Shown: positions 1,387-54,708 of the stretch, piece by piece
Layout: each line of letters starts with the position of its first letter
Numbering within the stretch: the stretch's first letter is position 1
Source of the DNA: a virus
Virus record (IMG/VR): IMGVR_UViG_3300008111_000001
Length of the DNA stretch: 64,000 nucleotides
Reading direction: 5' to 3' (one strand)
Notes under the pieces: model-generated
The model's input: only the letters and a program-made list of their open reading frames with translations
What the model was told of the DNA's origin: nothing
Database searches by the model: none
Program-made: the position numbers and the translations under genes

Positions 1387-1387
1387 A

Positions 1388-4179: not shown

Positions 4180-4205
4180 TTTAGTATTATATAGTGGCTG
4201 TGACG

Positions 4206-4214: not shown

Positions 4215-4240
4215 GTATCTGTCAGAAGGCCAATAGAGTA

Positions 4241-4269: not shown

Positions 4270-4331
4270 CTCTTTATACTGGCAAGTATATATGTTTAAA
4301 CCAATTTATGCGAGCTTATTTAGGATTAAGG

Positions 4332-10216: not shown

Positions 10217-10223
10217 TTCACCA

Positions 10224-11501: not shown

Positions 11502-11502
11502 A

Positions 11503-12316: not shown

Positions 12317-12330
12317 CGAAAGGTAATACA

Positions 12331-12525
12331 ATGTCAGATAACAAGTTGAAGTATTTCACAGTAACAACAACAGCAATCGTCAAGGCCAACAATAAGACCG
12401 AGGCGGAAAAGCTGGCTATGTCAACTGGTCGTCGTCCAGTCGGCGTTGCTGGAGAGGTAATCTTCAAGGACGTTGAGATCGAGCGCATCTCGGCTGTTGA
12501 GGCCCACGATCAGCTCGTTGGCTGA
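12331..12525 (+). CDS. Small hypothetical protein with GC-richer codon usage
   Basis: 64 aa; GAAAGG SD; frequent GC-ending codons (AAG, GAG, GTC, ATC). Confidence 0.7.
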   Translation: MSDNKLKYFTVTTTAIVKANNKTEAEKLAMSTGRRPVGVAGEVIFKDVEIERISAVEAHDQLVG

Positions 12526-12551
12526 GTAGTTCAGCAAACGTATTTGTTGTG

Positions 12552-12579
12552 GCTTGAGGGGGAGCAATCCCCCTCAAGC
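12552..12579 (+). terminator. Intrinsic terminator-like hairpin
   Basis: Perfect 12-bp stem GCTTGAGGGGGA/TCCCCCTCAAGC with a GCAA tetraloop, followed by TGTTT. Confidence 0.7.
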
Positions 12580-12602
12580 TGTTTCTAAGGATTGGATATT
12601 TT

Positions 12603-13295
12603 ATGATAATAGCTCAAATGATAGGCAAGAATGAATCCGAGAGATTTCTTGAAGATGTCTTAGAAAGACTATCTTCACAAGTAGATAAGATTGTTTTTAC
12701 AGATGATTGTTCTGATGATAACACTATTGAAATAGCTGCAAAATACGCAGAAGTTTTTCAGAGTCCAGAACCTCTATTCAAAGTGCACGAAGGCAAGCTA
12801 AGAGCTTTTGCGTGGGGAAACTTAGAAAAGTTTGCCTCTGTTGGCGATTGGATAATCGCTATAGATTGCGACGAGATGCTACATCACATTAATGAAATGC
12901 CAATAAGAGATGTTTTGGCTCAGTCTCCAAATGATGTTGTTAATGTTAGGTTCTATCATATGTGGAACGATTCTCAATATCGAGTGGATAAACTTTGGGC
13001 GCCAAACAATAGTTCAAGAATATTTAGATTTGTTCCAAATGGCGGATTTGCAAATAGACAACTCGCCTGTGGATCAGAGCCTACGTATGTAGCAGATTGG
13101 ATTCGCCAAAGAAATTGGTGGCTTAACTCCGGTTTAGTCATGCAACATTTAGGATATGTTAAGGATTCCGACAAAAAAGATAAATATTCAAGATATTCAG
13201 AGATAGATGGTGGTAGATTTCATAACGGAGATCATATTAATTCAATAATGGACGAAAACCCAGTCTTAATTGACTGGGGTACATTTGGTATATAA
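12603..13295 (+). CDS. Glycosyltransferase family 2-like protein
   Basis: KNE...IVFTDDCSDDNT...WIIAIDCDE...MQHLGY. Confidence 0.82.
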   Translation: MIIAQMIGKNESERFLEDVLERLSSQVDKIVFTDDCSDDNTIEIAAKYAEVFQSPEPLFKVHEGKLRAFAWGNLEKFASVGDWIIAIDCDEMLHHINEMPIRDVLAQSPNDVVNVRFYHMWNDSQYRVDKLWAPNNSSRIFRFVPNGGFANRQLACGSEPTYVADWIRQRNWWLNSGLVMQHLGYVKDSDKKDKYSRYSEIDGGRFHNGDHINSIMDENPVLIDWGTFGI

Positions 13296-13308
13296 TTAGG
13301 AGAAAAAA

Positions 13309-13950
13309 ATGACCTGTCTTAACCCCGCTGAATCAATCAAAAACATTACATTGGCTCTTGAAAAGAACAAAAAGTTTTCTTACATTAACGTTACAAAGTC
13401 GGCAATTATCGCTCTAAGTAAAAGTTCAGATAACTCCTTTCCTTCACACTTTGCCAAGAGCGTAATCGCCTCCTTGAAAAATAATGATCCTATGATGATG
13501 AAAGCTATATCTCATTCATTGGTTTCTGACATAGAGGATGGAAAGCATTACAAAATAGGTCTCCATAAAAATGGAACGTACTATTATTCAAATATTTTTG
13601 AATATTATTACATGAATAATAAAGATGTATATAACTCAACAGTTAACTATTACATAAAGAATTCTCCAAGCGTTGTTATCACCTTTCATGATAAGAAGCT
13701 TATACAAAAACATTTTGGCAATAGTGCCCACATAATCAACGTTGCGTATACCAATTACTATGAAAAATTAGATAATATATATGCTCAACTAACCGAATTT
13801 GAGGGTGGAGTAGATTACTGCATTATGGATTGTGGCGTCCTTGGTTTGGCGTTGGCTTCTAAGATATGGGAAAACTTGAACATGTCAGTATTAGATTTTG
13901 GTAAAACATTAAGTTTGAGTAAGACTCCTCAAACAGTAAGCGTGGCATGA
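13309..13950 (+). CDS. GT-D-fold-like protein (tentative)
   Basis: KKFSYI at the N-terminus and DYCIMDCGVLGLALASKI...VLDFG at the C-terminus resemble GT-D fold proteins; adjacent to a GT2. Confidence 0.45.
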   Translation: MTCLNPAESIKNITLALEKNKKFSYINVTKSAIIALSKSSDNSFPSHFAKSVIASLKNNDPMMMKAISHSLVSDIEDGKHYKIGLHKNGTYYYSNIFEYYYMNNKDVYNSTVNYYIKNSPSVVITFHDKKLIQKHFGNSAHIINVAYTNYYEKLDNIYAQLTEFEGGVDYCIMDCGVLGLALASKIWENLNMSVLDFGKTLSLSKTPQTVSVA

Positions 13951-14603
13951 AAAAAGAATACAAAAAGCTAGAAGAAGATGATATTAATTTTCTTACTGAT
14001 CTTCTTTTTGATACATCTTTATCTATTAGCGAAATCGCTAAGCAATTAGACGTATCTATACCGGAAGTTAATAAGAAAATAAATTCTCTTGGTTTGTCGT
14101 GGCTGAAAAATTCTAGAAAAAAAATGTCTAGAGGCCAAACTGCTTTGACGATGATAATGCAAAAACTTCTTCCTGGTGAAGAAATCATTAATGAACACCA
14201 TATAGGTGACAAGTTAAAGCTGGATGTATTTTGCCCTAAATATAAAATAGCAGCAGAGTATCATGGTAGACAGCATTTTTATTATACTAGTAGATTTTTT
14301 GAATCCAAGTATGACTTTGAACAAGCTCAGAAAAGAGATGAAAAAAAAGCGCAGTACTGCATAGACAATGGAATAGCTTTGATCGTTTTTAGGTACAACG
14401 ATTTGTTAACTGAACAAGCTGTTTATGATAGAATGTTAACAGCAATAAGGGAAACTGATTTTGTTTCAAAACCGACTCGCAAAACATCCATAAGTTCTAA
14501 TCCAGCGTACCAAGAAGCTAAAAAGAAAAACTCTGAGTACAAAAAGAAATTGTACAGAAAAATAAAAGGTTCCAAAATTGATGACCGCAGAAGAAGTATC
14601 TGA
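13947..14603 (+). CDS. HTH + Vsr/DUF559-like endonuclease
   Basis: N-terminal HTH (SISEIAKQLDVSIPEV); LDVFCP...AAEYHGRQHF...RDEKK...ALIVFRY. Confidence 0.75.
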   Translation: MKKEYKKLEEDDINFLTDLLFDTSLSISEIAKQLDVSIPEVNKKINSLGLSWLKNSRKKMSRGQTALTMIMQKLLPGEEIINEHHIGDKLKLDVFCPKYKIAAEYHGRQHFYYTSRFFESKYDFEQAQKRDEKKAQYCIDNGIALIVFRYNDLLTEQAVYDRMLTAIRETDFVSKPTRKTSISSNPAYQEAKKKNSEYKKKLYRKIKGSKIDDRRRSI

Positions 14604-16041
14604 GTTAGAAAACTCTCCAATAGAATACCATGCCTTCTCATTATGCCTAAAGCAGCCAGGTGCTGTAGAATTTTTTAATGATAATTTATCTAGTGATATA
14701 GTTGGAATTATTCATGGAGAAAAAGGCGTTCATGAATTCTATGAAGCACTTCTGGGTTTCCACCGTGCTACTGGATTGGATATAGTAGATCCTGTAGCTT
14801 TTAAAGTTTGGTTGCAGTCTGAAACTGATATCTACAACGCTTTAGGTGGAGACACTGGTCTTTCTATAATGCTGGACTATGTTCTTGGTATTGACGTTGG
14901 AAGTAAAGAATCTGTTTTAGAGTTAATTAAGCATAAAGCAAATAAACGAAAGCAGATAAATTATCTTCAAGAGCTTCAGATATTAATTAATAAAAAAGGT
15001 CTCAAGTCTGAAGAAGATACTTCCAGAATATCTGAGTTAACTTCAAAGATTAAAGATTTAGAAAATTCGATAAAGTACAACCCTTTTGATAAGTTAACAA
15101 CAGCTTCAGATATTATGTCTAGAGCTGATGATCTGCTAGACATACCCAGCTTTATGCCTACACAGTTTAAGGCTTTAAATAGGGCTATGGGCTATACTGA
15201 AGACGGTGGCTTCTTTAAGGGGGCTGTCCATGCCGTAATTGCCCCATCAGGTAAGGGTAAGAGTACTTTTACAAAATGCCTAGCGAATCACTGGCTTGAT
15301 TCAGGTTACAGAGTTTTATATGTCAACTTCGAAGAAGCTATTGGTCACTGGGAAAGAATATTGATGACACAAATAATAGGCAAGAATGTTTATTCGGAGT
15401 CTGAGAAATGGTCACAAAAAGAGAAGTTAGATTATATATCGATTTTTAAATCTAGATTGGAAAAATGGGGAGATCGCCTTATGGTTAGACATGATCCTGA
15501 TACCCCATACTTTGAGGATTTAGAATTTTGGCTTAGAGATTTAATAGGACACGCAGATAAAACTCCAGATGTATTAATAATTGACACCATACAATCAATG
15601 TTCACTAGAGGTAACGGTAAGGGTAAGCCTCGATGGGGTGAATTTGAAGAAATGATGGTTAGATTAGAAAAACTAGCTAGAGATATGAATTGCGTTTTAA
15701 TAATAACCGCACAAGAAAATGCTAATAGAATGAAAGAAAGAAGAGAAGTTGTCCAGCAATCTGACACCGGCGGATCTTTAGCTATTCAGCAAAAATGTGC
15801 AGTAACTATTTTTATTACTGAAAAACGTTTAGCGACCCAAGATGAAACCGAAGATGAAAACATTATGCAGCTACAGATTCCCAAGAACAGAATAACTGGC
15901 TCTGCCTTTCTTTATGATCCCCCATTGGTTCGCTACAATGACGAAAAGAAAATATATGAAGATTATGAAGTTGTGAGCGAAAGCTCTTATACGGAAAGTA
16001 CAGATTTACAAGATTTACTTAATGGAGAAGGGTTTGATTGA
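14578..16041 (+). CDS. dnaB: DnaB-like replicative helicase (SF4)
   Basis: Walker A APSGKGKST, NFEE, Walker B LIIDTIQ, TAQ, KNR. Confidence 0.85.
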   Translation: MMTAEEVSELENSPIEYHAFSLCLKQPGAVEFFNDNLSSDIVGIIHGEKGVHEFYEALLGFHRATGLDIVDPVAFKVWLQSETDIYNALGGDTGLSIMLDYVLGIDVGSKESVLELIKHKANKRKQINYLQELQILINKKGLKSEEDTSRISELTSKIKDLENSIKYNPFDKLTTASDIMSRADDLLDIPSFMPTQFKALNRAMGYTEDGGFFKGAVHAVIAPSGKGKSTFTKCLANHWLDSGYRVLYVNFEEAIGHWERILMTQIIGKNVYSESEKWSQKEKLDYISIFKSRLEKWGDRLMVRHDPDTPYFEDLEFWLRDLIGHADKTPDVLIIDTIQSMFTRGNGKGKPRWGEFEEMMVRLEKLARDMNCVLIITAQENANRMKERREVVQQSDTGGSLAIQQKCAVTIFITEKRLATQDETEDENIMQLQIPKNRITGSAFLYDPPLVRYNDEKKIYEDYEVVSESSYTESTDLQDLLNGEGFD

Positions 16042-16832
16042 TGATAGATTTAAGTACTGATTCAATAAAAGACTTTCAAACATGTGAAAGATTATATGAT
16101 TATAGATATGTAGAAAAGCTTCCTGAGACAATCTATTCTCGTGATCTCTATGCTCTAAAGTTTGAAAATAGTTTAAAGAATATTATAAATTTTTTTTGGT
16201 TCAAAAAACAAGCCGGAATCACCCCATCATACGCATCCCTACTAAATAGATGGGAAAAGATTTGGTTTCCAAAGGATACGACTCATTATGATCTAACAAT
16301 AGAGCAGCACGAAAGTGCTTATGGAAACATGTCTAGCTTGACGGCCCAGGCAGCAAACATCCTACTTAATTTCCATGAAACCTATAGTCAATTAGATGCA
16401 ATCCCGTTGTCTATTGCAGATGAGTATGTCGTTACTGTAGATAAAACAGTGAGAATACATGATAAGTTTGATCTTATATATCGGCACGCAGGGCAAAATT
16501 ACGTTGTTAAGTTTATTTTTAACTATAAGAATAGTTACAGACAAATGTATCAAGTAGATTTTTCTTCGATGTATTTAGCTTTCAAAAATCTTCATCCAGG
16601 AAAGGTTGCTTCAACAAAGTTTGGTTATGTTGATTTAATGTCAAACAATCTAAAGTTTAACGAATATGAAATAACTGAACAAGACATAGAGTCAATAAAT
16701 TACTGGTGTGCTACAATAGAGGATAAAGATGTTTTTGTGCCCAGAAGAGGTTTAACATATTATTGTAAAAAGTGTCCATTTGATACGCCGTGTTCCAAAT
16801 GGTCTTTCTCAACTCAAGCTAAAGTAAAGTGA
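16038..16832 (+). CDS. RecB/Cas4-like PD-(D/E)XK fold protein with a degenerate active site
   Basis: N-terminal DFQTCERLYDY and C-terminal CKKCPFDTPC Cys cluster; DKFDL...VVKF in place of D-x-K. Confidence 0.65.
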   Translation: MMIDLSTDSIKDFQTCERLYDYRYVEKLPETIYSRDLYALKFENSLKNIINFFWFKKQAGITPSYASLLNRWEKIWFPKDTTHYDLTIEQHESAYGNMSSLTAQAANILLNFHETYSQLDAIPLSIADEYVVTVDKTVRIHDKFDLIYRHAGQNYVVKFIFNYKNSYRQMYQVDFSSMYLAFKNLHPGKVASTKFGYVDLMSNNLKFNEYEITEQDIESINYWCATIEDKDVFVPRRGLTYYCKKCPFDTPCSKWSFSTQAKVK

Positions 16833-16842
16833 GTATTATATT

Positions 16843-17520
16843 ATGGCTAAAAATTTCTTAGATGAAATTCTTAAAGAAGATAAAAAGAGTTTTTTTGAAA
16901 CAGAAAATGATGTACTGCATCAGTTGTTGGATGAAATAAATCTAATTACAGACGATGCTATAGTTTCATTTGTAAGATCAGTATTGTTGAAGGCAGAAAT
17001 ATTTTGGGATATTCCATCTAGTTTTTCAGGCAAATATCATCCTGGCGATGAGCATGGTCCTGGCGGCAACGTACTGCACACTAAGCGAGTTGTTAGGGTA
17101 GCATCTATCTTGGCTGATTCGTATTCTTTGTCAGATGATGAGAGAAATGTAATTATAGCAGCGTGCCTGCTCCATGACGTCACAAAGGGCATACCCGATT
17201 TTAATGATGCATCCTCTTTTCACTATGACCCCATGCATCCATATACGGTGGCTAAGTTTGTCCAAAATTGTCAAATGTATGATAAAGAATATGGAAACGA
17301 TTCTCAGTCAACTAGTTTATTTATAGCAGAAGAATCTATACAAGCCATATTGCGTTTAGTTAGATGTCATCTTGGTCCATGGTCACCAGTGCCAGAAACC
17401 TATCCTATTACTTATTTAGATTATATTGTTCATATAGCAGATAATCTTGCTAGCAAGATCCATACGGTTATAGAAGATAGTGAGCTTATCAATGAAAAGT
17501 GGCGAAAGCAAGCTGAGTAA
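16843..17520 (+). CDS. HD-domain phosphohydrolase (YhaM-like)
   Basis: PSSFSGKYHP, LHTKRV, LLHDVTK, CHLGPW, HIAD. Confidence 0.82.
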   Translation: MAKNFLDEILKEDKKSFFETENDVLHQLLDEINLITDDAIVSFVRSVLLKAEIFWDIPSSFSGKYHPGDEHGPGGNVLHTKRVVRVASILADSYSLSDDERNVIIAACLLHDVTKGIPDFNDASSFHYDPMHPYTVAKFVQNCQMYDKEYGNDSQSTSLFIAEESIQAILRLVRCHLGPWSPVPETYPITYLDYIVHIADNLASKIHTVIEDSELINEKWRKQAE

Positions 17521-39778: not shown

Positions 39779-42217
39779 TTATCTTCTTCTTGAAGCTCCA
39801 GCTACTGGAGCAACTGCTATGACTGCACCAGCAGCTATAACGGCTCTTCTTTGTCCTACGTTTATATTTGAACCTAGTGGGACATAAGTGTTTAGACTTC
39901 CTGAACCAAATATATTTATTTCTTCTTCAAATGAAGAACGGACTTCAGTTGGAGCATCTTGCACCGCAGCAATAATTTCCAAAGCTTGCTCTTCTGTTAT
40001 TTCTTCTATGGGGATCTCAGCAAAAATTTCTGCTGCCTGTTCTCCATCGATAGATGATAGTACCTCTGCGCTGGTCGCAATCTCAGTTGCTTGCTCCTCT
40101 GTTATTCCATTTTCTATAATTGCATCGACAGCTTCTTGGACTTGCTCATCAGTAACTGTGTCACTACTTAACGCGTCAACTAGATTTTCGAATTGTTCGT
40201 CACTTAATGGTTGATCCAAAACGGCATCAATGACTGCAGTAAATTCTTCATCACTCAGTGGTTCTTCGAACACGGTATCCAAGACTTCAGCAAAGGCTTC
40301 GTCACTTAGTTCTTCTGCGAATACTTGATCAATAACTTCGGTGAATTGTTCTTCCGAAAGGTCTCCTGATAATAATTCTGTAGCAGCTGCAACTAATTCT
40401 TCTTCACTGTCAGCTGAAGTTAGTATTTCGTCTACGGCATTAGCAAATTCTTCTTCAGTTAAATCACCAGATAAAATTTCATCTACTTGATTTTGTATGT
40501 CTTCTGGAACTGTTTCTTCAGGTTGGGTATCTTCTGGTGTGTTAGGCTCTGGTTCTACTATTTCTGGTTCAGTTGTTGGTGGATCAGTGTCTGGTGGTAT
40601 AACGACTGGAGGAGTTGTTTCTGGTTCAGTCACTGGTGGTTCAACTATTTCTGGTTCAGTTGTTGTAGTTGTTTCCGGTTCTGTTGTTGGTGGTTCTGTT
40701 GTTGTAGGTCCAGTCGTTGTGGGCACTGTTGGCATGGAAATTAAAACTTCAGCAACAGATGCTGTCTGTGAGTACACGCCAAACGTGTCATTGTCTGCTC
40801 TTACTGAGATCGTGTATTCAACATCAAGTCCACCAGTAGATTGAAATAATGAATAATTTAAAATAATTGAAGTATTTAATGCAGTCTGATCGCCCACATT
40901 ACCAGTAGCAACACCCCAACCAGAAGTGCCATTACTCCAAGAAACTGCATATCTTTCAGGGGACACTCCAACATTATCATCTGCTGCCTCCCAGCTTATG
41001 AGTAAGCCATCTTCGGTGAGCAAGGTGGTTAGATTGGCGGGCTGCCCAAGAAACTTTGGTAGTGTAGTGGTTGTGGTAGTAGTTGTGGTGGGCGTTGATG
41101 TTCCAAATATCTTAATATTAAATCCACACCATTCGCTATTCCAGTTGCTCATGGTTACTCCATTGCTAGTGCCGCCAATGTAAGAAGGGTAGTTATTAAC
41201 ATCATACGGTTCCAGCCATGCGCTTTGCCCAGGTTCAATGAGTCCGGCAAAAACTGCTGCAGCGCCAAAGTTTGAGTCATCTGTAAACGGTCCACTTCCC
41301 CATCCACCACCATTTATTGTACCCGTTACATAAATGGGTGAATATGGCCCACAACCTCCACCACTATAACTTCCCTGAGGAATGGTTGTGGTTGTAGTAG
41401 TTGTAGTTGGAGTAGGCGCTGAATATGTAGCAGTGACCGAAAGCCATTTACCGGTGCCTGGACATGGATCACCAAAAACGCTATTGTTCGCACCAATAAC
41501 TAGAGTATTTTGTCCAAGAAATTGTGCCTGCTGTTCACCACTTAACGTTGCATGGCAACTTTGATTTACTGCATAGTTTTCATTTTCGCCAGTTGGAGTT
41601 CCATAGGACATAAATGTTATGCCAGTAAACACTGATCCTTCTGGCGCCTCTAGTGTTAATATTTGGTTTTCCCAAACTTTTGCGAACATAGAAAGTTCAG
41701 TTGTTGTTGCTATGAGTGATGCATTTTTAATTACTGGCCCATAGCATCCAGCCCAAAAAAGAGAGTCTACGCCAGAAAAAGTAACAGTAACCAGTTCATT
41801 TTGTTCTGTTGTTGTTATTTGTAGAGTAGAAGCTTGAATCACTCCGGCGGTTAATACTCCGGTAGTATCTGACTCATTGGAGTCAGACAGGGTGGCACTG
41901 TATGTTCCACCCCATTCACTACTAGCAAGAAATGATAGTTCTAAATTGGATGGAGAAGGAACAATAACCTGTTGTGTTACAGAGTTTTGGACATAACTAA
42001 ATGTTAATTGAGAAGCCGCCCAAAGCCCTAAGCTTGGAGAGCCACCAGAACATCCTGCTCCGCCGTTGGCTCCGGTCCACCCCCCACCATTTGCTGAAAA
42101 ATTTCCATTAATTAAAATGTTTTCCGATGTCGCCCTAACATTCATTGGTGCAAAGAATCCAACAATAGCAATACAAACTGTTGATAATCTAAGTAAATTG
42201 CCAATAAAATTCCGCAT
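39779..42217 (-). CDS. Secreted multidomain surface/adhesin-like protein (carbohydrate-binding, SUEL-type lectin, LCCL, FN3-like, acidic repeats)
   Basis: Signal peptide; FMSYGTPTG..SCHA...ANNSVFGDPCPGTGKWLSV (SUEL/Gal_lectin); GWGSGPFTDDSNFGAAAVFAGLI...YIGGTSNGVTM (LCCL); poly-Thr linkers; PE/PT stalk. Confidence 0.8.
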   Translation of the reverse strand: MRNFIGNLLRLSTVCIAIVGFFAPMNVRATSENILINGNFSANGGGWTGANGGAGCSGGSPSLGLWAASQLTFSYVQNSVTQQVIVPSPSNLELSFLASSEWGGTYSATLSDSNESDTTGVLTAGVIQASTLQITTTEQNELVTVTFSGVDSLFWAGCYGPVIKNASLIATTTELSMFAKVWENQILTLEAPEGSVFTGITFMSYGTPTGENENYAVNQSCHATLSGEQQAQFLGQNTLVIGANNSVFGDPCPGTGKWLSVTATYSAPTPTTTTTTTTIPQGSYSGGGCGPYSPIYVTGTINGGGWGSGPFTDDSNFGAAAVFAGLIEPGQSAWLEPYDVNNYPSYIGGTSNGVTMSNWNSEWCGFNIKIFGTSTPTTTTTTTTTLPKFLGQPANLTTLLTEDGLLISWEAADDNVGVSPERYAVSWSNGTSGWGVATGNVGDQTALNTSIILNYSLFQSTGGLDVEYTISVRADNDTFGVYSQTASVAEVLISMPTVPTTTGPTTTEPPTTEPETTTTTEPEIVEPPVTEPETTPPVVIPPDTDPPTTEPEIVEPEPNTPEDTQPEETVPEDIQNQVDEILSGDLTEEEFANAVDEILTSADSEEELVAAATELLSGDLSEEQFTEVIDQVFAEELSDEAFAEVLDTVFEEPLSDEEFTAVIDAVLDQPLSDEQFENLVDALSSDTVTDEQVQEAVDAIIENGITEEQATEIATSAEVLSSIDGEQAAEIFAEIPIEEITEEQALEIIAAVQDAPTEVRSSFEEEINIFGSGSLNTYVPLGSNINVGQRRAVIAAGAVIAVAPVAGASRRR
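40076..40483 (-). repeat. Eight degenerate 17-aa acidic helical repeats (51-bp period)
   Basis: DEILSGDLTEEEFANAV / DEILTSADSEEELVAAA / TELLSGDLSEEQFTEVI / DQVFAEELSDEAFAEVL / DTVFEEPLSDEEFTAVI / DAVLDQPLSDEQFENLV / ... Confidence 0.85.
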
Positions 42218-46551: not shown

Positions 46552-46737
46552 ATGCCAAGAGTAAGATATGTCTATGATGGCACAAATCAAACTGAAACAA
46601 CAGGTAATTTTAGTGCCGGAGAAGAAACAGCGCAAGATGCACAAGACGCTACTAATGAATCAACTTATAAAACTAATTCAAAAGCGGTTAGTCGCGATAT
46701 AGCTGACAATCGTAGATTTATTATGGAGGTAATTTAA
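46552..46737 (+). CDS. Small hypothetical protein in the fibre operon
   Basis: 61 aa; AGGAG SD; TAATG coupling to the next gene. Confidence 0.6.
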   Translation: MPRVRYVYDGTNQTETTGNFSAGEETAQDAQDATNESTYKTNSKAVSRDIADNRRFIMEVI

Positions 46738-47111
46738 TGCCTATTCAAATGAAGAGGTTATCTGGTCCAGACAATTTTGCCTCTGCAGATACCGAAGAAG
46801 ATTTATATACAGTTCCAAGAAATACCGGTTACACAACTACAACTGTTATTAAAGAAATTATCCTCTGCAATACCGCAGCTTCTGCTGCAACTGTCACTTT
46901 GTGGTTAAAGCCAAAAAATGTTACGGTTGCAACGGATCATGTATTTATCAATGCGCTTTCACTAGCGGCAAATGAAACTGTTACTTTATCTACATCTTTA
47001 ATATTAACAAATGATGATAATACGGCTGGAGATACATATTCTGATAAAATTCGTGGAAAAGCAAGTGCAACTACAGTAAACTATATAATAAATGGTTATG
47101 AAGAGTACTGA
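46737..47111 (+). CDS. Putative virion beta-sandwich protein
   Basis: TEEDLYTVP...TVIKEIILCNT..SAATVTLW...NETV, a small structural-gene pattern common in phages. Confidence 0.65.
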   Translation: MPIQMKRLSGPDNFASADTEEDLYTVPRNTGYTTTTVIKEIILCNTAASAATVTLWLKPKNVTVATDHVFINALSLAANETVTLSTSLILTNDDNTAGDTYSDKIRGKASATTVNYIINGYEEY

Positions 47112-47116: not shown

Positions 47117-47905
47117 ATGGGAAAGTTTATTAGGGCAAATAATACTACAACAGGAATTAGTTTTGTTGGCGGTACTTCGTCCACACATTCTGACTTACTT
47201 ACCATGTCAAACTTAGTTGACGTTCCTGACTCAATTTATGGATCCGCAGCTGATGGATCAGTAACCTTTGATGGCTCAAGTACCGTTTTGTCAATGGCGC
47301 CAGCATCTTCTGTATACACAATGACTAGGGATATATATTGTTACAACTTAACTTTATCGGCAAACGTGCGCTTAAATCCAGCTGGTTATAGAATTTTTGT
47401 ACAAAATTTATTAACATTTGGTAGTGGGTCTACTATTGGTTTTACCACAGGTTTTTCTACCGCTGGATCAATACAACAGGGCGGAGCAGCAAACAATGTT
47501 TCGTTGTCGCCAGTGACACATAGCCTTGGGGGCTCAAGCGCAACATATAATGCGACAGCACCAACAGCAGCTACAGGCGGAACCAACTATTACAAACAAC
47601 CATTTCAGGCAATAAAAGGATATTCCATTACTGGGTCTTCGACTACTCCAACATTTTTAAAAGGTGGAGCTGGCGGAACAGCTGGTGCTGGAGGCGGAGT
47701 TGTAATCTTAGCTGCTAGATTTATTGGCGTTTCCAGTGGCACTGGTTACATTAAAGCTCCTGGAACAGCGGGGGCTGGCGGTGGTGGCGGTGGTGTTATT
47801 ATTATTATTTCATCTGCAGCAACATTAAATTCTGGTGTTTCCACTGATGTTACTGGTGGGACCAGCTGCGTTGCTGGAACGGTAATTTATTCACAGGTGG
47901 CATAG
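47117..47905 (+). CDS. Gly-rich fibre/appendage protein
   Basis: DSIYGSAADGSVT...MTRDIYCYNLTL...GYRIFV; GGAGG..GGGVVIL..GGGGGVIII beta-solenoid-type motifs. Confidence 0.72.
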   Translation: MGKFIRANNTTTGISFVGGTSSTHSDLLTMSNLVDVPDSIYGSAADGSVTFDGSSTVLSMAPASSVYTMTRDIYCYNLTLSANVRLNPAGYRIFVQNLLTFGSGSTIGFTTGFSTAGSIQQGGAANNVSLSPVTHSLGGSSATYNATAPTAATGGTNYYKQPFQAIKGYSITGSSTTPTFLKGGAGGTAGAGGGVVILAARFIGVSSGTGYIKAPGTAGAGGGGGGVIIIISSAATLNSGVSTDVTGGTSCVAGTVIYSQVA

Positions 47906-47907
47906 TT

Positions 47908-49641
47908 ATGGTTGGCAGGATTCGAAGAATAAATAAAACAATTACACAGCGTGATGATTCAATTTTTGGCGAAGGCACTGACGGTGCTGTGACAATATCT
48001 AGTGGTACAACATATTTAACAAAAGATATGTATTACACTAATCTAACAATCAACTCTGGCGCAACATTATTTACTAATGGTTTTAGAGTTTTTGTTAATG
48101 GAACATTAACTAATAATGGAACACTAGGAATGCCAACTTTAACTGCAGCTACTGTAGCAGATGGTTCTGGCACAGTAGCTGGCAGACAAAACGCTCTTAA
48201 TCCAGCTAAAGCATGGGGCACAAGCACAGACGCATTATCTGTAACAGATATGCACGATATGGACGATGCTGTATCAGGTTGGTTTATTACTTCAGCTGGG
48301 GCAATTACCAAAATAGGATCAGGCTCACTTGGGGTAGCTGGTTCAAGTGGAAATGTTGCGGCTGCAACTGCTGGTAATTATCCTGGTCATTCCAATACGG
48401 TTGGTGCTGCCGGTGGAACAGGCAATGCGGCGACAGCTGGTACTGGTGGAGCAGGAGGTCTTGGTGGTGGATTGGTTATTGTTTTAGCCAAAAATATCTC
48501 TGGCACTGGTTATATAGTTAGTTATGGATTTGCTGGAAACCCAGGAAATCCTGCGGTGCAAGGTAATCCAGCTCCAAATATTAGCGGATATCATACTGGC
48601 GGATTCTATCATCATGCTATTAATGGACACAGGATAAGTCCTGCTACTAGTAATCAAAATAGCCCCCATCATAACCATGGAAACCATAATCATAATGCCG
48701 GAGTCCTTCCTGGAAATCCAACAAATGCAACAGGAGTAGTCAATGCTGGGCATCATCCTGCAACTAACAATCACGCACATGCTTCACATGGTACTAATCA
48801 TAATAGTGGCAGCAATTTTAGCAATAGTCCTCCTTATGTAATTTACGTATTAGCACATAATGGTGGGACGAATCATAACTCCGGTAACGGTCATCATCAT
48901 CATCCAGCTAATGGAAGCAGGCCTTCGCCTCATCAAGCGAATTCAAACGCTGCGCATCATAGCCATGGTTCACATACGCATACTCCAGTTCACATTTTTG
49001 GGCATGCGACATCAAACCATAATGGATCTCATTCTTGTGATTGTAATCATGGCGCTCATCATCACAATCCTGGACATGGTCATCACGCTGGCAATCATAA
49101 TGCCGGAAATCATCCCTATCCACACGGGGTGGGTGGGCATGGATCTGGGCCTAATCCAACGTCACACAACGCCCACGCTGTAACTCATCCTGGTCATGGC
49201 CATCATCATACGGCAGAAACTCCCCATGGTGCATCTAATCCGCATTCATATGGTGGAGCAAAAGGCATACCTCACTCAGCATTGGTTTTGGGTCATAATG
49301 GAAGCAATCCGCATACAAGTGGAAGCCACCCTCATGGAGCTGGAAGTACTGGGCCAAGTCCTAATGCAACCATAACTGCAGGCAGCCACAATGCAGGTGA
49401 CCACACACACACGGCTGCCACAGTAAACCACAGCTCCGGAGCAGTTACCAGCAATAGAACAGCAGCTCCAACTCACACTGCAACAAATGCAAATTATACT
49501 GGTGGGTCTGGAGGTACAGCAAATCCGGGTAATACTGGTGCAACAGGGAGTACCGGTGGTATAATTGTCGTTACAAGAAACGCCGGAAATGCTGCTAATC
49601 AACTAGGACATTCTAATTATTCTAAGATACTAGATATCTAA
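47908..49641 (+). CDS. Paralog of 47117 carrying a ~300-aa His/Asn/Gly-rich insertion
   Basis: DSIFGEGTDGAVT...LTKDMYYTNLTI...GFRVFV; GGAGGLGGGLVIV; the central segment has about 60 His by hand count. Confidence 0.8.
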   Translation: MVGRIRRINKTITQRDDSIFGEGTDGAVTISSGTTYLTKDMYYTNLTINSGATLFTNGFRVFVNGTLTNNGTLGMPTLTAATVADGSGTVAGRQNALNPAKAWGTSTDALSVTDMHDMDDAVSGWFITSAGAITKIGSGSLGVAGSSGNVAAATAGNYPGHSNTVGAAGGTGNAATAGTGGAGGLGGGLVIVLAKNISGTGYIVSYGFAGNPGNPAVQGNPAPNISGYHTGGFYHHAINGHRISPATSNQNSPHHNHGNHNHNAGVLPGNPTNATGVVNAGHHPATNNHAHASHGTNHNSGSNFSNSPPYVIYVLAHNGGTNHNSGNGHHHHPANGSRPSPHQANSNAAHHSHGSHTHTPVHIFGHATSNHNGSHSCDCNHGAHHHNPGHGHHAGNHNAGNHPYPHGVGGHGSGPNPTSHNAHAVTHPGHGHHHTAETPHGASNPHSYGGAKGIPHSALVLGHNGSNPHTSGSHPHGAGSTGPSPNATITAGSHNAGDHTHTAATVNHSSGAVTSNRTAAPTHTATNANYTGGSGGTANPGNTGATGSTGGIIVVTRNAGNAANQLGHSNYSKILDI

Positions 49642-49649: not shown

Positions 49650-49658
49650 TGATATAAT
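49650..49658 (+). promoter_or_regulatory. Extended -10 promoter (TGATATAAT) for the tailoring-enzyme operon
   Basis: Exact TGnTATAAT upstream of AAGGAG and ATG 49681. Confidence 0.55.
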
Positions 49659-49929: not shown

Positions 49930-50520
49930 ATGAAATTTAAAGAACACGCTACGTGTGTAGTTGAATATGAAAATGTTTTTGACGCACAAAAATTTATAAT
50001 TCTTCTAGAAGAAGAATGCAGTGAATCATGGGGATATTTGTCTTGGCAAAGATCTACTGTTGGCACTGGTCAAGTTTCTGATATTAGAACATCTCTAAGT
50101 TGTGAGCTAGAGCCAATTAATAGCAAAGATATTCAAATAGAGCGAGTAAAGCCACTTGCCGCTGAATGGATCTCTATGTGGGAGAAAGTGGACCCCATAG
50201 TATGGGACTATAGAAATTATTTTGAGCTAGACCTAGATGCCGACGAAGGATATAGGGTGTTAAAATATTCTGCAGGAGCGGAATATGGCATTCATCACGA
50301 TCATGCTCCAATGAACGCAAGAACGTTAAGTTTAGTTGCCTTTTTGAATGATGATTATACTGGAGGCAATTTAGTATTTCCTAAGTTTAATATTTCAATT
50401 AAGCCAAAAGCTGGAAGTGTTATTCTTTTTCCATCCAACTTTCCATACGCTCACATCGCAGAACCAGTAGGTGAAGTTGATGGTACAACTAAATATTCAT
50501 TAGTTACATGGTTTAGATGA
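49930..50520 (+). CDS. 2OG-Fe(II) oxygenase (prolyl-hydroxylase-like)
   Basis: LKYSAG.EYGIHHD (HxD), FLNDDYTGGNL.F, LFPSNFPYAH, KYSLVTWF. Confidence 0.9.
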   Translation: MKFKEHATCVVEYENVFDAQKFIILLEEECSESWGYLSWQRSTVGTGQVSDIRTSLSCELEPINSKDIQIERVKPLAAEWISMWEKVDPIVWDYRNYFELDLDADEGYRVLKYSAGAEYGIHHDHAPMNARTLSLVAFLNDDYTGGNLVFPKFNISIKPKAGSVILFPSNFPYAHIAEPVGEVDGTTKYSLVTWFR

Positions 50521-50774: not shown

Positions 50775-51474
50775 AAATTATGCTAATCCAGAAATATCTA
50801 ATATTTATTCAAAAACCAAAAGTTTTGAGCTATCGCACGATGATTTAAGACAATCTTTTTTAAATGTTCTTGATAGCGAAATACAGACTGGGGTAGATAG
50901 AAGTAACGATGCAAGAGGTATGTCTCAGCAGCTGAACTGGCACTCTGCGGTATTGGGAAATTTATGTCACGACAACAGCTCTGGACTAGATGCTGAGTTA
51001 TTTGTTAGATCTTTAGCTGAGTTTGTAACTAGGTTAAAAAATCCAAATACAGCTTTGTGTGGGACAATATGCCATCTAGTTATGGCGGAGATAAAAAAAA
51101 TTGTTCCAAATATTGACTATATAAATACAGTGCACCTAGATTATTTAGAAAAATATTTGAATGAGTCTATCGATAGCAGCAATGTCATCCTAATGCAGGA
51201 TATTGAAACTTCTTCGTTAGATAAGTTTTATGATCTTATTTTTATAGACTTTGAAATATTTAGTCACGATCTGTCTTTAGTAGACAATCTTTGGGCAAAA
51301 GTAGCCCCAAATGGCTTAATGTGTTTATGGAATGTTAATGATTTTCACAAAGTCTATCAAAGAGGCACTGGGCATGCCTGGACTCAATACCTAATGTCAT
51401 TAACTGAGCGTGAAGACATGTACACTTTCCACATTCCAATTCTAACAGGATTTACGTTGGTTATTAAAAGATGA
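50767..51474 (+). CDS. SAM-dependent methyltransferase-like protein (tentative)
   Basis: C-terminal YDLIFIDF...LVDNLWAKVAPNGLMCLWN resembles the class I MTase beta4-beta5 region; motif I is not clear. Confidence 0.45.
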   Translation: MSENYANPEISNIYSKTKSFELSHDDLRQSFLNVLDSEIQTGVDRSNDARGMSQQLNWHSAVLGNLCHDNSSGLDAELFVRSLAEFVTRLKNPNTALCGTICHLVMAEIKKIVPNIDYINTVHLDYLEKYLNESIDSSNVILMQDIETSSLDKFYDLIFIDFEIFSHDLSLVDNLWAKVAPNGLMCLWNVNDFHKVYQRGTGHAWTQYLMSLTEREDMYTFHIPILTGFTLVIKR

Positions 51475-52946
51475 ATCAAAAAAAAATTATAGTAGTAGGT
51501 TCAGGAACAGCTGGGCTTGTAACTGGATTAATTATTAAATCTTATTTTAAAGATTATAGTGTAATCAATATATCTTCCAGTAAACGTGGTATTATTGGAG
51601 TAGGAGAAGGCTCAACTGAGCATTGGCGCATATTTCAAGATATCATCGGCATTCATCCTCATGATATGATTAAAAATGTAGACATTACCCATAAGTATGG
51701 AATTAGATATGAAAATTGGACAAATCATACTCCTGATTATTTTCATAGCGTTGGTGGCACTGGGGTTCATTTTGGTAGCTTTTGGGCCGGATACGCAACT
51801 GCGCTAGAGAACAATAGATTGTTAACAAACACCTATTCTTGGCGCGGAATAGTAGAAGATAAAATTATTGATCTTGGTGAAAAAACACATTATGGATCTA
51901 ATCAATATCATTTTGATACATTTAAGTTAAATGAGTATCTAATTAAATTGTCTAAAGAAAAAGGAATTATTTTTATAGACGATGATGTAATTGATGTTTT
52001 TGTATCAGAAAATGGATACATTGAAAGTGTACTTACTAAAGAAAATAATCAAAATATATCTGCAGATTTTTTCGTCGATGCAACTGGATTTCATAGGCAG
52101 GTTTTAAGCAAAATTGCCGACCAAACATTTATTCCGTATAGAAAATATTTACCGTGCGATAAGGCAATAGCCTTTCCTACAGAAGCTGATCCATCAGGAA
52201 GAATACGTCCATATACTAGAGCACGAGCGCTAAAAAATGGTTGGATGTGGGAGATACCAACGTTAAGCCGTAGAGGAAATGGTTATGTATTTTCTTCTGA
52301 TTTTTGTTCAACCGAACAAGCTATCAAAGAGGCTTCTGAAATTCATGAATTTGAAGTTACTCCAGCAAAAGTTATAGATTTTACTTCTGGATATTTTAAA
52401 GAAACATGGAAGAATAACTGTATTGCTGTCGGACTTGCTGCGGGATTTGTTGAACCATTAGAGGCTACTTCAATTTCTACAACAATTCAACAAGCAAGAG
52501 TTCTATGCTCATATCTTCCAACCTTCTCTGAGAATAGAACATATGGGATAAAAGAATATCATAGAATAATGGATTCTATTATGAATAATATTCTATGTAT
52601 GATTTCTCTGCATTATATTTCAGATAGATCAGATACAGAAATGTGGAGAGCTCAACAGTCAGCAGAAAAACCAGAATTGTTACAGCATCTTATTGAGTTG
52701 TGGAGTATACGTTGTCCGGAAACGCACGATGTGCCATCTACAGGATATGAATTATTTGGCGCACCACATTTATGGCATGTTGCTCAGGGGCAAGGTGTGC
52801 TAAAATCAGATATTGCATCAATGCAATTGGATGCTTACGGTGCTAGATCATCTGGAATTGAAAATATAAAAAATATAGCTAAAGAATTTTTATCTCATAA
52901 ATTGGTGGATCATGGTGAAGAACTCAGAAAAATTAAAAATAGTTAG
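51471..52946 (+). CDS. Flavin-dependent halogenase (tryptophan halogenase family)
   Basis: VVGSGTAG (FAD), IGVGEGST, THKYGI (catalytic Lys position), GWMWEIP (WxWxIP), FVEPLEATSI. Confidence 0.88.
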   Translation: MNQKKIIVVGSGTAGLVTGLIIKSYFKDYSVINISSSKRGIIGVGEGSTEHWRIFQDIIGIHPHDMIKNVDITHKYGIRYENWTNHTPDYFHSVGGTGVHFGSFWAGYATALENNRLLTNTYSWRGIVEDKIIDLGEKTHYGSNQYHFDTFKLNEYLIKLSKEKGIIFIDDDVIDVFVSENGYIESVLTKENNQNISADFFVDATGFHRQVLSKIADQTFIPYRKYLPCDKAIAFPTEADPSGRIRPYTRARALKNGWMWEIPTLSRRGNGYVFSSDFCSTEQAIKEASEIHEFEVTPAKVIDFTSGYFKETWKNNCIAVGLAAGFVEPLEATSISTTIQQARVLCSYLPTFSENRTYGIKEYHRIMDSIMNNILCMISLHYISDRSDTEMWRAQQSAEKPELLQHLIELWSIRCPETHDVPSTGYELFGAPHLWHVAQGQGVLKSDIASMQLDAYGARSSGIENIKNIAKEFLSHKLVDHGEELRKIKNS

Positions 52947-53730
52947 TCCAAAAGTATTCAATGACATTCCAAAAATAAAAGAAGGTCAAGTATTTCTTTC
53001 TCCTCAAATCATGCAATTGATGGATGATGATTGTAGACCTTATGTCAATCTTGGTAATTGGCCAGATTGGTGGAAAGAATTAAGTGGAAGCGAGGGCAGC
53101 CTGAAGAGATGTTCTGGCACATCGGATTATCTTGCTACAGGATTTACGATCCCTTTGTGGGCTAAGGCAATGTTTAGGCCATCAGTTGATTATAAGTCGT
53201 GGGAAGCGCAATTTGATCTATCTAATGATATTGGAAATTTTGGTATAGAAAGCTTTAACTATGGACAAACGGGAGAATGTCCGGTAACAAAAGTTAGAAA
53301 AATTGAAAAAGCTAATTATGTAAAAATAATAAATCCATGGCTAACTAAAACAGCACCAGGATGGTCAAGCCTATTCTTGCCACCATTATGGGATCCTAAC
53401 CCAAACTACACAATGCTACCAGCCGTAGTGAATACTGATTACTATCATAATGCCCACATGGTTATTAATATCTTAACAGATCAACCATTTGAATTAGAAA
53501 TCGGTAGACCAATGTGGCACGTAATTCCATTTAAAAGAACAAAGTCTTTAGAGGCTATTTGGGGAGATGAGTCTGCATATAACCTATTGAGATATAGGGG
53601 TTTCGGTGGGCCTTTTTCCCCAAAAAGACAAAAAAGTAAATATAAAAAACTTCAAAGAGAAATAGATGAATCTATTGTTTCTGAAAAGAAAAAACTATTA
53701 AATAAAATTTTTAATAAAAATAGGAGTTGA
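52912..53730 (+). CDS. Hypothetical protein of a phage family often found beside oxygenases (beta-barrel-like)
   Basis: LKRCSGTSDYLATGFTIPLW...KIINPW..KTAPGWSSLFLPP...LPAVVNTD...VIPFKR. Confidence 0.7.
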   Translation: MVKNSEKLKIVSPKVFNDIPKIKEGQVFLSPQIMQLMDDDCRPYVNLGNWPDWWKELSGSEGSLKRCSGTSDYLATGFTIPLWAKAMFRPSVDYKSWEAQFDLSNDIGNFGIESFNYGQTGECPVTKVRKIEKANYVKIINPWLTKTAPGWSSLFLPPLWDPNPNYTMLPAVVNTDYYHNAHMVINILTDQPFELEIGRPMWHVIPFKRTKSLEAIWGDESAYNLLRYRGFGGPFSPKRQKSKYKKLQREIDESIVSEKKKLLNKIFNKNRS

Positions 53731-53997: not shown

Positions 53998-54708
53998 ATG
54001 GATCAAGCTAGTTTCTATTGGCCAGCTGGCACAGCTTCTGCAATAATGGTTGCAGACAATATTGTTGATAAAGAAATATGTGATTTAACTTTAAGTGAGT
54101 TAAAAAAATATTATAGTCAAGTCGCTTCACCAGGCCCAACCATTAGTGGGCTAATGCCATCTATTAAAAGTAGCATGGATATAAACTGGTCACATCAAGC
54201 GATGGTTTGTCAAAATATTCCAACTGATAAATTGGATGCATGTGAAGTCCATATTGTTGAAAAACTATTTCTCTGCATTGCTAAGTATAGGGAGCAGTTT
54301 AGGTGGCTATGGGAATGGAATGATATATCTGATACAGGATTTAGAGTGCAAGAATACAAAAAAGGTGTTGGATACTACAGAGAGCATATAGATGGTGGTA
54401 TGGGTGATAAGACTTATACCAGAGACAGAATTCTTGCTGCTATAATATATCTAAACGATGTTGAAATGGGTGGGGAAACATACTTTAGGGAGCATGAGTT
54501 GAGAGTTCCAGCAAAAGCTGGTTCGATATGTTTATTTCCAACACATTGGACATACCCGCATCAAGGATGTCTTCCAATATCAAATGACAAGTGGATCATA
54601 TCAACCTTTATACAAACACAAGCTAATGATATAGTTGAGTCTCTTGATGCACAAGAGGAAAAAGAAATTGTATTATCTTCTACGAAAATGCCAAAAAATG
54701 ACAAGTAA
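53998..54708 (+). CDS. 2OG-Fe(II) oxygenase (prolyl-hydroxylase-like)
   Basis: VQEYKKG.GYYREHID, IIYLNDVEMGGETYF, LFPTHWTYPHQG, KWIISTF. Confidence 0.9.
   Translation: MDQASFYWPAGTASAIMVADNIVDKEICDLTLSELKKYYSQVASPGPTISGLMPSIKSSMDINWSHQAMVCQNIPTDKLDACEVHIVEKLFLCIAKYREQFRWLWEWNDISDTGFRVQEYKKGVGYYREHIDGGMGDKTYTRDRILAAIIYLNDVEMGGETYFREHELRVPAKAGSICLFPTHWTYPHQGCLPISNDKWIISTFIQTQANDIVESLDAQEEKEIVLSSTKMPKNDK

Follow-up and report, generated by a model that had tools for sequence, protein, structure and literature searches.

A predicted beta-solenoid protein with a long histidine-rich insert, encoded beside an oxygenase and halogenase cassette in an uncultured lake phage

Gene B, which encodes a predicted beta-solenoid protein with a long histidine-rich insert, follows its smaller paralogue, gene A, within a window of 64,000 nt taken from the IMG/VR virus record IMGVR_UViG_3300008111_000001 (Table 1). 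The A/B module adjoins an upstream gene for a collagen-like fibre and is followed downstream by a block of enzyme genes. Both reading frames had been placed correctly in a preliminary description of this DNA. The carrier of gene B is an uncultured phage of lake origin with a size of approximately 194 kb.

Table 1. Features of the gene B locus, with positions counted from the first nucleotide of the window
Feature	Position	Strand	Remarks
Collagen-like tail-fibre protein, 1394 aa	42355..46539	+	G-X-Y repeats; PHROG tail-fibre families down to E 2e-136
p124, small conserved partner preceding A/B	46737..47111	+	phrog_20100, no assigned function
Gene A	47117..47905	+	262-aa paralogue without the insert; 2 His; highly conserved
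Gene B	47908..49641	+	577-aa predicted beta-solenoid protein with His-rich insert
B N-terminal scaffold, aa 1-225	47908..48582	+	Conserved alignment block; hhalign to A; AF2
His-rich insert of B, aa 226-530	48583..49497	+	Composition, AF2, dN/dS
B C-terminal scaffold, aa 531-577	49498..49641	+	Last solenoid rung and cap
Promoter-like TGATATAAT, extended -10	49650..49658	+	In the 39-nt gap after B; consensus match only
2OG-Fe(II) oxygenase, prolyl-4-hydroxylase type	49930..50520	+	PF13640, E 3.8e-14; first enzyme of the block
Flavin-dependent (Trp-type) halogenase	51471..52946	+	PF04820, E 1.4e-99
p272, DUF6065-like	52912..53730	+	35-nt overlap with the halogenase reading frame
Second 2OG-Fe(II) oxygenase	53998..54708	+	PF13640 on the identical gene in L001; position conserved in cassette maps

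The product of gene B contains 64 histidines, 60 of which fall within aa 230-530 (H 60, G 43, N 41, A 34, S 31, T 26, P 25), in line with the earlier hand count of about 60 His in some 300 aa at nt ~48590-49500. Histidine therefore makes up approximately 20% of the insert, compared with 2.06% in the 46 other long ORFs of the window, none of which exceeds 9 His in any 100 aa (binomial P = 6e-40 for 60 His in 301 aa). The segment had also been described as nearly free of charge and without a strict repeat unit, and both statements held: only 7 charged residues (D/E/K/R) are present in 301 aa, Tandem Repeats Finder detected no strict repeat in the insert DNA except one 2.1-copy trace of 9 nt, and autocorrelation gave weak peaks only (z 2.7 at lag 9). 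Across the 301 aa, His accounts for 20% and Gly for 14%, and the predicted confidence (pLDDT) is around 27. By composition the insert thereby falls among the His-rich, metal-binding low-complexity proteins of the Nvjp-1, HRG or Hpn kind, whose long, Gly-rich, non-globular regions have at least about 15% His. Neither A nor B gave a match in Pfam and PHROG scans (PHROG at E ≤ 0.01).

By BLASTP alone the resemblance between A and B is marginal (E 0.05). Alignment of the two family alignments with hhalign returned a probability of 99.2% (E 1.5e-19), with A 34-226 corresponding to B 16-206, which bears out the view of the two genes as tandem paralogues, the second of which has its Gly-rich scaffold interrupted by a long insert. 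At the C-terminal rung, A 208-234 aligns with B 533-559. From these flanking alignments, the 13-residue loop APGTAGAGGGGGG of A marks the site of the His-rich stretch of B; according to the models, the insert takes the place of this loop, which connects the final two rungs of a predicted beta-solenoid. The N-terminal scaffold of B carries the family motif IFGxGxDGxVTI...DMYYxNLTxNSGxxLFTNGFRVFV followed by Gly-rich rungs up to GGAGGLGGGLVIVLAKNISGTGYIVS, and the C-terminal scaffold (GGSGGTANPGNTGATGSTGGIIVVTRN...GHSNYSKILDI) is kept in 18 of 18 full-length homologues.

The AF2 model of A is a beta-solenoid (pLDDT 84, pTM 0.81). In the B model the scaffold reaches a pLDDT of 82-94 at aa 20-77 and about 65-89 at aa 180-220, and C-terminal strands are predicted at 552-556 and 572-576 (pLDDT 55-79). 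The insert in the monomer model remains at a pLDDT of around 27 throughout, which may reflect the shallow alignment of 18 sequences, or a fold that depends on metal or on oligomerisation, instead of disorder. The best solved matches to the A model by VIA-align were generic beta-helix adhesins and tailspikes (bactofilin, EtpA, HMW1, Ag43 and the CBA120 tailspike, Z 5-6.2), with S16 gp38 (6f45_D; Z 4.4, rmsd 4.6, 124 aligned residues) ranking below them. A Foldseek search of the A model against the PDB gave no significant match, and so fold class alone is assigned for A. In BFVD, the A fold matched collagen-like proteins of Pandoravirus and Orpheovirus (E 1e-10 to 1e-7), while a purely sequence-based profile search of all PDB chain sequences with the A1 alignment found nothing at E ≤ 1.

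Gene B had been called fibre-like. This stands in the sense that it belongs to a fibre module beside a collagen-like fibre, but not with respect to shape, as AlphaFold predicts a single-chain beta-solenoid and no fibre shaft. The family N-motif also occurs inside, or in the C-terminal part of, longer fibre-like proteins, and genes neighbouring the relatives include Peptidase_S74, Phage_Tail_Tip, PTL_trimer and Phage_tail_APC.

Among known His-rich phage tail-module proteins, the T4 gp37 needle and the P2 gpV apex are alike to B in that transition-metal binding is plausible. Phage fibres and spikes with HxH iron sites are mentioned in PMC11705849 (citing Bartual 2010 and Bonnain 2016), and the 13 H-x-H dyads of the insert could be read as a trimeric, interdigitated needle with a central metal row held by HxH, as in the gp37 tip or gpV apex; the strict dN/dS reported below would suit such a defined fold. 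We consider this very unlikely. The dyads occur at shuffle level (11.6 ± 2.8 in 2000 shuffles, p 0.37), none of the His spacings from 1 to 5 is enriched over shuffles, and no periodicity rises above z 2.7, whereas gp37 is described as holding 7 Fe ions on regular HxH in a trimeric needle. Unlike gp37 and gpV, the 60 His of B lie in a predicted loop of a single-chain solenoid rather than in a fibre shaft, with no match to a solved chain in the sequence-only PDB profile search at E ≤ 1, and a register-dependent needle fits poorly with the frequent indels among homologues. A gp37-like HxH needle was rejected on the spacing statistics and the missing periodicity.

Comparison of the insert with that of a 93%-identical homologue (L091) gave a dN/dS of 0.08. 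Synonymous differences number 91 and non-synonymous ones 38, with 0 indels in 305 codons and 60 of 62 His columns kept. In the same comparison the scaffold (0.10) and A (0.07) were similar to the insert. Judged by these substitutions, the insert is a real, constrained protein under purifying selection, and for a disordered region that matters by composition alone, a dN/dS of 0.08 without indels is remarkably strict. This hints at a specific fold or partner beyond the explanation favoured below. The chance that the His-rich stretch is non-functional low complexity or a mis-called frame is negligible. Such a reading could point to the missing Pfam and PHROG matches and to the low AF2 confidence in the insert, but the frame is open over 577 codons, the C-terminal scaffold is in-frame in all homologues, and the reading is refuted by the dN/dS and the 91 synonymous changes without an indel.

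At moderate divergence the picture differs, with B of the window and that of L011 sharing 91% identity in the scaffold and 52% in the insert. Over longer distances the family alignment is indel-rich in the insert, which varies by lineage from 100 to 850 aa and may be His-rich, Tyr/Asn-rich or Pro/Asp-rich. The indel-rich segment is bracketed by the conserved GGAGGLGGGLVIV and GSTGGIIVVTRN, an architectural resemblance to gp38-type adhesins and not homology. In T2 and S16 gp38, Gly-rich motifs likewise flank a fast-changing segment, and the gene is distal in the fibre set (PMC12032242, PMC3157838). The insert could be a hypervariable receptor-binding loop on a Gly-rich scaffold, like that of gp38, in which the histidines serve for H-bonding or stacking with host sugars or proteins and have no metal role. 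This has in its favour the divergence pattern, the differing lengths and chemistries, the position at the end of the fibre module and the gp38-like arrangement of Gly-rich motifs, yet we hold it to be unlikely. Selection in close relatives is purifying and not diversifying, A resembles S16 gp38 only weakly in structure, with no sequence homology found, and gp38 loops are short and not His-rich, whereas the B family has one low-complexity loop. Moreover, 41-67 His are retained in all 18 full-length homologues despite many indels, and the mean composition of 64 distinct His-rich inserts is H 20.5, G 13, N 11, A 10 and P 10%, which argues for selection on histidine itself. Across the same 64 inserts, short motifs recur far above expectation (HPAG 73 vs 3.3, HNAG 64 vs 3.8, GHNP 66 vs 4.3).

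The next ORF begins 39 nt past the stop codon of B, much as the preliminary description had placed an enzyme operon about 40 bp downstream, and no terminator-like site was found between B and the enzyme genes. The order of the cassette is p124, A, B, P4H-like 2OG oxygenases, flavin halogenase and DUF6065-like protein. The halogenase of the window shares 31-37% identity with halogenases of cyanophages and pelagiphage HTVC008M, and cyanophage flavin halogenases such as VirX1 count among the closest known counterparts. For p272 there was no Pfam match of its own, though in the Atlas clusters nearest to it 11-20% of members bear PF19541, and so does a relative in L009. When p272, p235, p237, p124 and the small ORFs were compared with Pfam at E ≤ 5, no informative match emerged. 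Among loci, the enzyme block may be found downstream, upstream or inverted, yet always near A/B, and A adjoins B in every cassette locus. One contig contains two complete cassettes (L040/L044).

The preliminary description had proposed checking whether the insert co-occurs with the enzymes, and 61 IMG/VR loci with full flanks could be used for such counts, insert-bearing loci having at least 7 kb on each side. All 33 of the 33 His-rich members have 2OG oxygenases nearby, together with a flavin halogenase and a DUF6065-like gene. Oxygenases, p272 and p124 accompany all insert-bearing loci (46/46), and a halogenase is found in 37/37 His-type loci. Tyr-rich sister forms have oxygenases in 9/9 and a halogenase in 0/9. 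By comparison, 14 of the 15 insert-less relatives are without any cassette enzyme, the remaining one (1/15) having enzymes. On the tree, however, presence of the operon changes once and presence of the halogenase twice, so that the association is statistically inseparable from shared descent of one cassette; an independent-pairs test, applied to insert versus operon and to His versus halogenase, found 2 independent pairs only (p = 1). A linkage between insert and enzymes is therefore suggested by the gene content of these loci, while the association belongs to the whole p124-A-B module and not to the insert alone. Among close relatives no clean His-poor B without the operon was found, the candidates (L075/L094 and L093) lying at contig ends. 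Trp is absent from only 3 of 64 halogenase-linked B proteins, and a Trp of B may accordingly be a halogenase target.

The explanation that we favour, with a probability of roughly one half, is that gene B encodes a fibre-module solenoid with a virion-exposed, metal-coordinating host-contact loop, possibly modified by the enzymes. B would be built as a single-chain beta-solenoid like A, in which the last inter-rung loop has been expanded to 305 non-globular, nearly uncharged residues, and this loop would most likely stick out at one end of the solenoid, on the surface of the virion. In that position it would act as a multivalent imidazole array coordinating divalent metals (Zn, Ni, Cu, Fe), contacting the host surface or neighbouring fibre parts, with a behaviour that would switch with pH near the pKa of histidine. 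Because B belongs to a conserved cassette, it is likely to be made and used together with the cassette enzymes, possibly as their substrate. We infer virion exposure, host contact, enzymatic modification and metal binding, the last from composition only. Metal binding is well established for disordered proteins rich in His and Gly, Nvjp-1 and Nai11527 of Nereis jaws among them (PMC9465683, PMC13120676), and virion-bound metals are discussed for aquatic phages in the 'Ferrojan Horse' literature (PMC11705849).

The enzymes themselves allow other roles for the insert. It may be mainly a ribosomally produced substrate, in which the P4H-like oxygenases hydroxylate Pro, Asn or His (in motifs such as HNAG, HPAG and GHNP) and the halogenase adds halogen to His or other aromatic residues, giving a cross-linked or hardened fibre tip; this is a possible if doubtful alternative, and one that overlaps with the favoured explanation without excluding it. 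It would account for the perfect co-inheritance of insert and enzymes, for its persistence through rearrangement and duplication of the cassette, for the lack of a terminator separating B from the enzyme genes and for the recurrent short motifs in the inserts. The co-inheritance nevertheless rests on one change of operon and two of halogenase, making a statistical test impossible, and A and p124 show an equal association. Tyr is the more usual halogenase target, but it is richest exactly where the halogenase is absent, and to our knowledge enzymatic halogenation of protein-bound His has not been described. The cultured cyanophages S-PM2 and S-H38 have related halogenases with no A/B-like or His-rich fibre gene within ±15 kb. 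On the other hand, 2OG/JmjC oxygenases that modify peptides are known to act on Pro, Asn and His, and in bacteria such enzymes cluster with Gly-rich collagen-like and tail-collar proteins (PMC2938197). In Nereis jaws, too, a His-rich protein and halogenation occur together (PMC13120676). Instead, the enzymes could have A, the collagen-like fibre or a small molecule as their target, the last being the role proposed for the Syn9 cluster by Iyer et al. 2010 (PMC2938197). A bolder proposal, that the His-rich loop, like its Tyr/Asn-rich counterpart in the marine sister lineage, is the natural protein substrate of the phage P4H-like oxygenases and flavin halogenase and forms with them a hydroxylated, halogenated and metal-cross-linked tip of the virion fibre, appears decidedly improbable at present.

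Tight linkage of B to Fe(II)-dependent enzymes could also mean that B is an intracellular metal store or metallochaperone outside the virion, from which the neighbouring 2OG oxygenases would draw Fe(II) or some other metal in the infected cell. Metallochaperones typically bear His-rich tracts, as in Hpn and the tails of HypB, UreE and SlyD. We regard the chances of this as remote, as the scaffold is predicted to be a beta-solenoid like those of adhesins and tailspikes, its domain is fused to fibre-like and collagen-like proteins, and the sister lineage keeps the oxygenases with a Tyr/Asn-rich, His-poor insert that is incapable of metal storage.

Two known systems invite comparison with the metal-coordinating loop and its enzymes. 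Nvjp-1 and Nai11527 of the Nereis jaw and the His-rich domains of mussel byssus occur, like B, in a setting of collagen-like fibre and halogenation chemistry (PMC13120676, PMC9465683, PMC6477608). Nai11527 has 16% His and 29% Gly, against 20% His and 14% Gly in the insert, and both are predicted to be non-globular; the likeness is one of composition and concept only, between animal and viral proteins without homology. The Syn9-type cluster (Iyer, Abhiman, de Souza and Aravind 2010, PMC2938197) similarly unites classical 2OG oxygenases, a Trp-type halogenase and a conserved unknown partner, and in the window classical 2OG-Fe(II) oxygenases and a Trp-type flavin halogenase lie in one co-oriented array. 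A dUTPase-fold partner with a conserved cysteine is described for the Syn9 array; p272 of the window is DUF6065-like by its Atlas features. The Syn9 cluster was read as synthesising a secondary metabolite, with 0 mentions of a histidine-rich protein in PMC2938197, whereas the enzymes here stay tied to the p124-A-B module.

Few 'auxiliary' genes are commoner in aquatic phages than those for flavin halogenases and 2OG-Fe(II) oxygenases, and we know of no natural substrate established for the viral enzymes since they were first noted in cyanophage genomes. The insert offers a concrete candidate substrate for these puzzling proteins, and with it a hypothesis testable by expression: a His-packed loop under purifying selection, on a fibre-module protein, is never apart from the enzymes in the loci examined, and whether the loop is His-rich or Tyr-rich goes with the presence or absence of the halogenase. 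Should the loop be exposed as proposed, around 60 imidazoles per chain on the virion surface would bear on the trace metal carried by aquatic viruses, and would represent a mode of host contact or fibre stabilisation undescribed for any cultured phage. Should the insert be a substrate, it would be the first virion protein found to be halogenated by an enzyme after translation; the substrate class of viral halogenases would have been found, along with a viral counterpart of byssus and Nereis-jaw chemistry.

The family is abundant yet without a cultured representative in INPHARED at the sensitivity of BLAST. We found 117 homologues of B, of which the full-length ones (P0002-P0023) are every one His-rich, and more than 770 homologues of A at 53-89% identity, while the N-terminal domain of the family forms 1444 clusters at 50% identity. 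BLAST searches of 50,697 INPHARED phage records with A, B and the N-terminal 230 aa of B gave no match, and those with the relative P0027 matched a 53-aa motif only, in Halorubrum phage HF2 and Hardycor2. A and B reach E 0.01 against no PHROG, unlike the distant superfamily members P0273, P0285, P0027 and P0342, which match the function-less phrog_13336, where no His-rich insert is described. These matches run via the N-terminal motif and the Gly-rich scaffold.

The two open reading frames (ORFs) A and B lie where the preliminary description placed them (see table) and encode proteins of 262 and 577 aa. B contains 64 His, 60 of which fall within aa 230-530, together with G 43, N 41, A 34, S 31, T 26, P 25 and only 7 charged residues. 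The 46 other long ORFs of the window have a His background of 2.06% and a maximum of 9 His per 100 aa; 60 His in 301 aa has a binomial P of 6e-40. No tandem repeat was found in the insert DNA and protein autocorrelation is weak, so the earlier account of about 60 His in about 300 aa, almost free of charge and with no strict repeat unit, holds throughout. The insert also contains the only two Cys of B, arranged as C-D-C (SHSCDCNHG); P0003, an 80%-identical homologue, has C-N-C here, and more distant homologues lack these cysteines.

BLASTP detects only marginal similarity between the two proteins (E 0.05). Comparison of the family alignments, A2 (30 A homologues) against A1 (18 B homologues), gave a probability of 99.2% with E 1.5e-19, bearing out the proposal that the two are tandem paralogues. 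The last rungs of A (208-234) align with B 533-559, and the insert therefore stands in place of the 13-residue inter-strand loop of A. An AlphaFold2 model of A, built with the A alignment, has stacked beta rungs (pLDDT 84, pTM 0.81). Foldseek found no significant match to this model in PDB, VIA-align returned generic beta-helices at Z 5-6.2 (bactofilin, EtpA, HMW1, Ag43 and the CBA120 tailspike), and BFVD matches to the fold were Pandoravirus and Orpheovirus 'collagen-like' proteins and uncultured Caudovirales proteins (E 1e-10 to 1e-4). In the B model the scaffold segments have pLDDT of about 65-94 and aa 224-534 about 27, which may reflect either disorder or an alignment too shallow for prediction.

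The insert is real protein sequence under constraint. The N-terminal ~225 aa and C-terminal ~50 aa are in frame in 18 of 18 full-length homologues (40-93% identity), while the middle is indel-rich and nonetheless holds 41-67 His in each. Compared with the 93%-identical homologue at locus L091, the insert has 91 synonymous and 38 non-synonymous differences, no gaps in 305 codons, a dN/dS of 0.08 and 60 of 62 His columns unchanged; in the same comparison dN/dS is 0.10 for the N-scaffold, 0.03 for the C-scaffold and 0.07 for A. Between the window and locus L011 the scaffold is 91% identical and the insert only 52%. The insert is thus under close constraint over short evolutionary times and is reshaped over longer ones, as by the 13-residue tandem repeats of the family protein P0012. 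The strict short-term constraint suggests a structure or partner more specific than that of a 'disordered chelator'.

In the phage needle model, as outlined in PMC11705849 (citing Bartual 2010 and Bonnain 2016), regularly placed HxH dyads hold Fe in a trimer. The insert has 13 HxH versus 11.6 ± 2.8 in shuffles, no enriched His-His spacing and no periodicity, and a profile search of PDB sequences found no related solved chain. A gp37-type needle therefore does not fit and is very unlikely.

A word-indexed search found 117 relatives of B, most with a His-dense stretch; the relatives of A number more than 770. At E ≤ 1e-3, a full scan with the N-terminal 230 aa of B gave 1444 clusters (50% identity). 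Many of these have the ~55-aa N-motif within a longer protein, either internally or in its C-terminal part; 37 of 138 new representatives are His-rich, the largest having 1326 aa and 128 His. Composition varies little among 64 distinct His-rich inserts (H 20.5, G 13.2, N 11.0, A 10.2, P 10.1%), and HPAG (73 observed/3.3 expected from shuffles), HNAG (64/3.8), GHNP (66/4.3) and PGNP (60/2.4) recur, in counts inflated by kinship among the sequences. Same-site loops of other lineages are Tyr/Asn-rich (NPTNYG, YSYPGN) or Pro/Asp-rich. Pfam and PHROGs hold no named family for A or B, distant members match phrog_13336 (no known function), and neither protein was found in cultured phages of INPHARED at BLAST sensitivity. 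Giant B genes (P0240-P0243; loci L028, L041) reach 1066-1326 aa with 95-128 His, and four or five additional oxygenase-like ORFs precede giant B in L027, L028 and L042. An Lcl C-terminal domain (PF07603/DUF1566) is fused to P0183 and P0186 (A-like, 422-424 aa), P0314, P0317 and P0324. P0244 (1764 aa) is possibly a cellular relative: it bears a pilin-type prokaryotic N-terminal methylation motif, and the family N-motif stands close to its C-terminus. The N-motif (DG.V.I...RDMYY..LT.NSG) is also 50% identical to a hypothetical-protein stretch in archaeal myoviruses.

Coordinates of features discussed in the text
Feature	Location	Strand	Remark
A	window 47117-47905	+	
B	window 47908-49641	+	
His-rich insert of B	window 48583-49497	+	
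C-D-C pair	B aa 376-379		
812-aa protein	window 39779-42217	-	just upstream of collagen-like fibre
N-motif match	Halorubrum phage HF2 AF222060.2 50794-50955		
N-motif match	Hardycor2 MN901520.1 26669-26830		
Tandem cassettes (L040, L044)	IMG/VR 3300042545_001591, 3300042291_001557; about 150-6400 and 9600-17100		
S-H38 His-rich ORF	L233:20823-21110; Synechococcus phage S-H38 MW117965.1 about 70732-71019	+	4.4 kb downstream of halogenase

The window belongs to the genome of an uncultured lake phage (contig about 192-199 kb), which encodes a DnaE-type polymerase. A 1394-aa collagen-like fibre, a 61-aa ORF, the small conserved ORF p124, A and B follow in order. The next ORF begins 39 nt after B, agreeing with the ~40 bp noted earlier; small ORFs, two P4H-type 2OG oxygenases, a flavin halogenase, a DUF6065-like protein (p272) and a GT2 follow. 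The gap contains TGATATAAT, promoter-like by consensus match only, and no terminator was found in it. The 812-aa protein, with weak SUEL-lectin and LCCL matches (its L003 homologue matches LCCL), may be a carbohydrate-binding fibre component.

With purpose-built HMMs we scored 231 loci, drawn from IMG/VR and from further assemblies; the census comprises the 61 non-redundant ones flanked on both sides by 7 kb or more. All 33 loci with a His-rich insert (≥15 His per 100 aa) carry oxygenase, halogenase, p272, p124 and the A+B pair, as do all 4 with 8-14 His per 100 aa. The 9 loci of the Tyr-rich marine lineage have all of these except halogenase (0/9), and among the 15 with neither insert type oxygenase, p272, p124 and the A+B pair each occur in 1 and halogenase in 0. 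The proposed association of insert and operon is thus seen among homologues. It is predicted by functional coupling and equally by inheritance of one cassette: on the scaffold tree operon presence is one change and halogenase presence two, leaving only two independent contrasts (p = 1). Coupling to the enzymes applies to the whole p124-A-B module, not to the insert alone. The enzyme block is mostly downstream, being upstream in L008, L059, L072, L076 and L084 and inverted in L063. The marine sister lineage (L126-L147, L009, L010, including TARA) has the order p124-B-A, a Tyr/Asn/Pro-rich insert in B (NPTNYG and YSYPGN repeats, 28-40 Tyr, 10-13 His), two oxygenases, two or three p272-like genes and no halogenase. 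One phage contig (L040/L044) carries two complete tandem cassettes (p124-A-B-oxygenase-halogenase-p272) with unlike B proteins (536 aa with 55 His, 709 aa with 31 His).

The best-supported reading, to which we give a probability of roughly one half, is that B is a beta-solenoid of the fibre module in which the terminal loop would have grown into a long arm, dense in imidazole and almost without charge. On the virion surface, where we infer it to be exposed, the arm would coordinate divalent metals and make contact with other parts of the fibre or with the surface of the host, B being produced and used jointly with the neighbouring enzymes. The data show the composition and placement of the insert, the selection on it and its co-inheritance with the enzymes; metal binding and modification, like exposure, are inferences. 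That the loop is modified as a substrate of the cassette enzymes is the most interesting reading compatible with the data, and as a general statement it is doubtful; a hydroxylated, halogenated and metal-cross-linked fibre tip in full is improbable.

The Syn9 enzyme cluster was read as metabolite synthesis by Iyer et al. 2010 (PMC2938197), who mention no His-rich protein for it. In two cultured cyanophages with a related halogenase, S-PM2 and S-H38, no A/B-like gene was found within ±15 kb of it. S-H38 does have an unannotated 95-aa ORF, unrelated in type to B, whose N-terminus resembles a signal peptide and whose tail is charged and rich in His (28 His over the 108-aa open frame).
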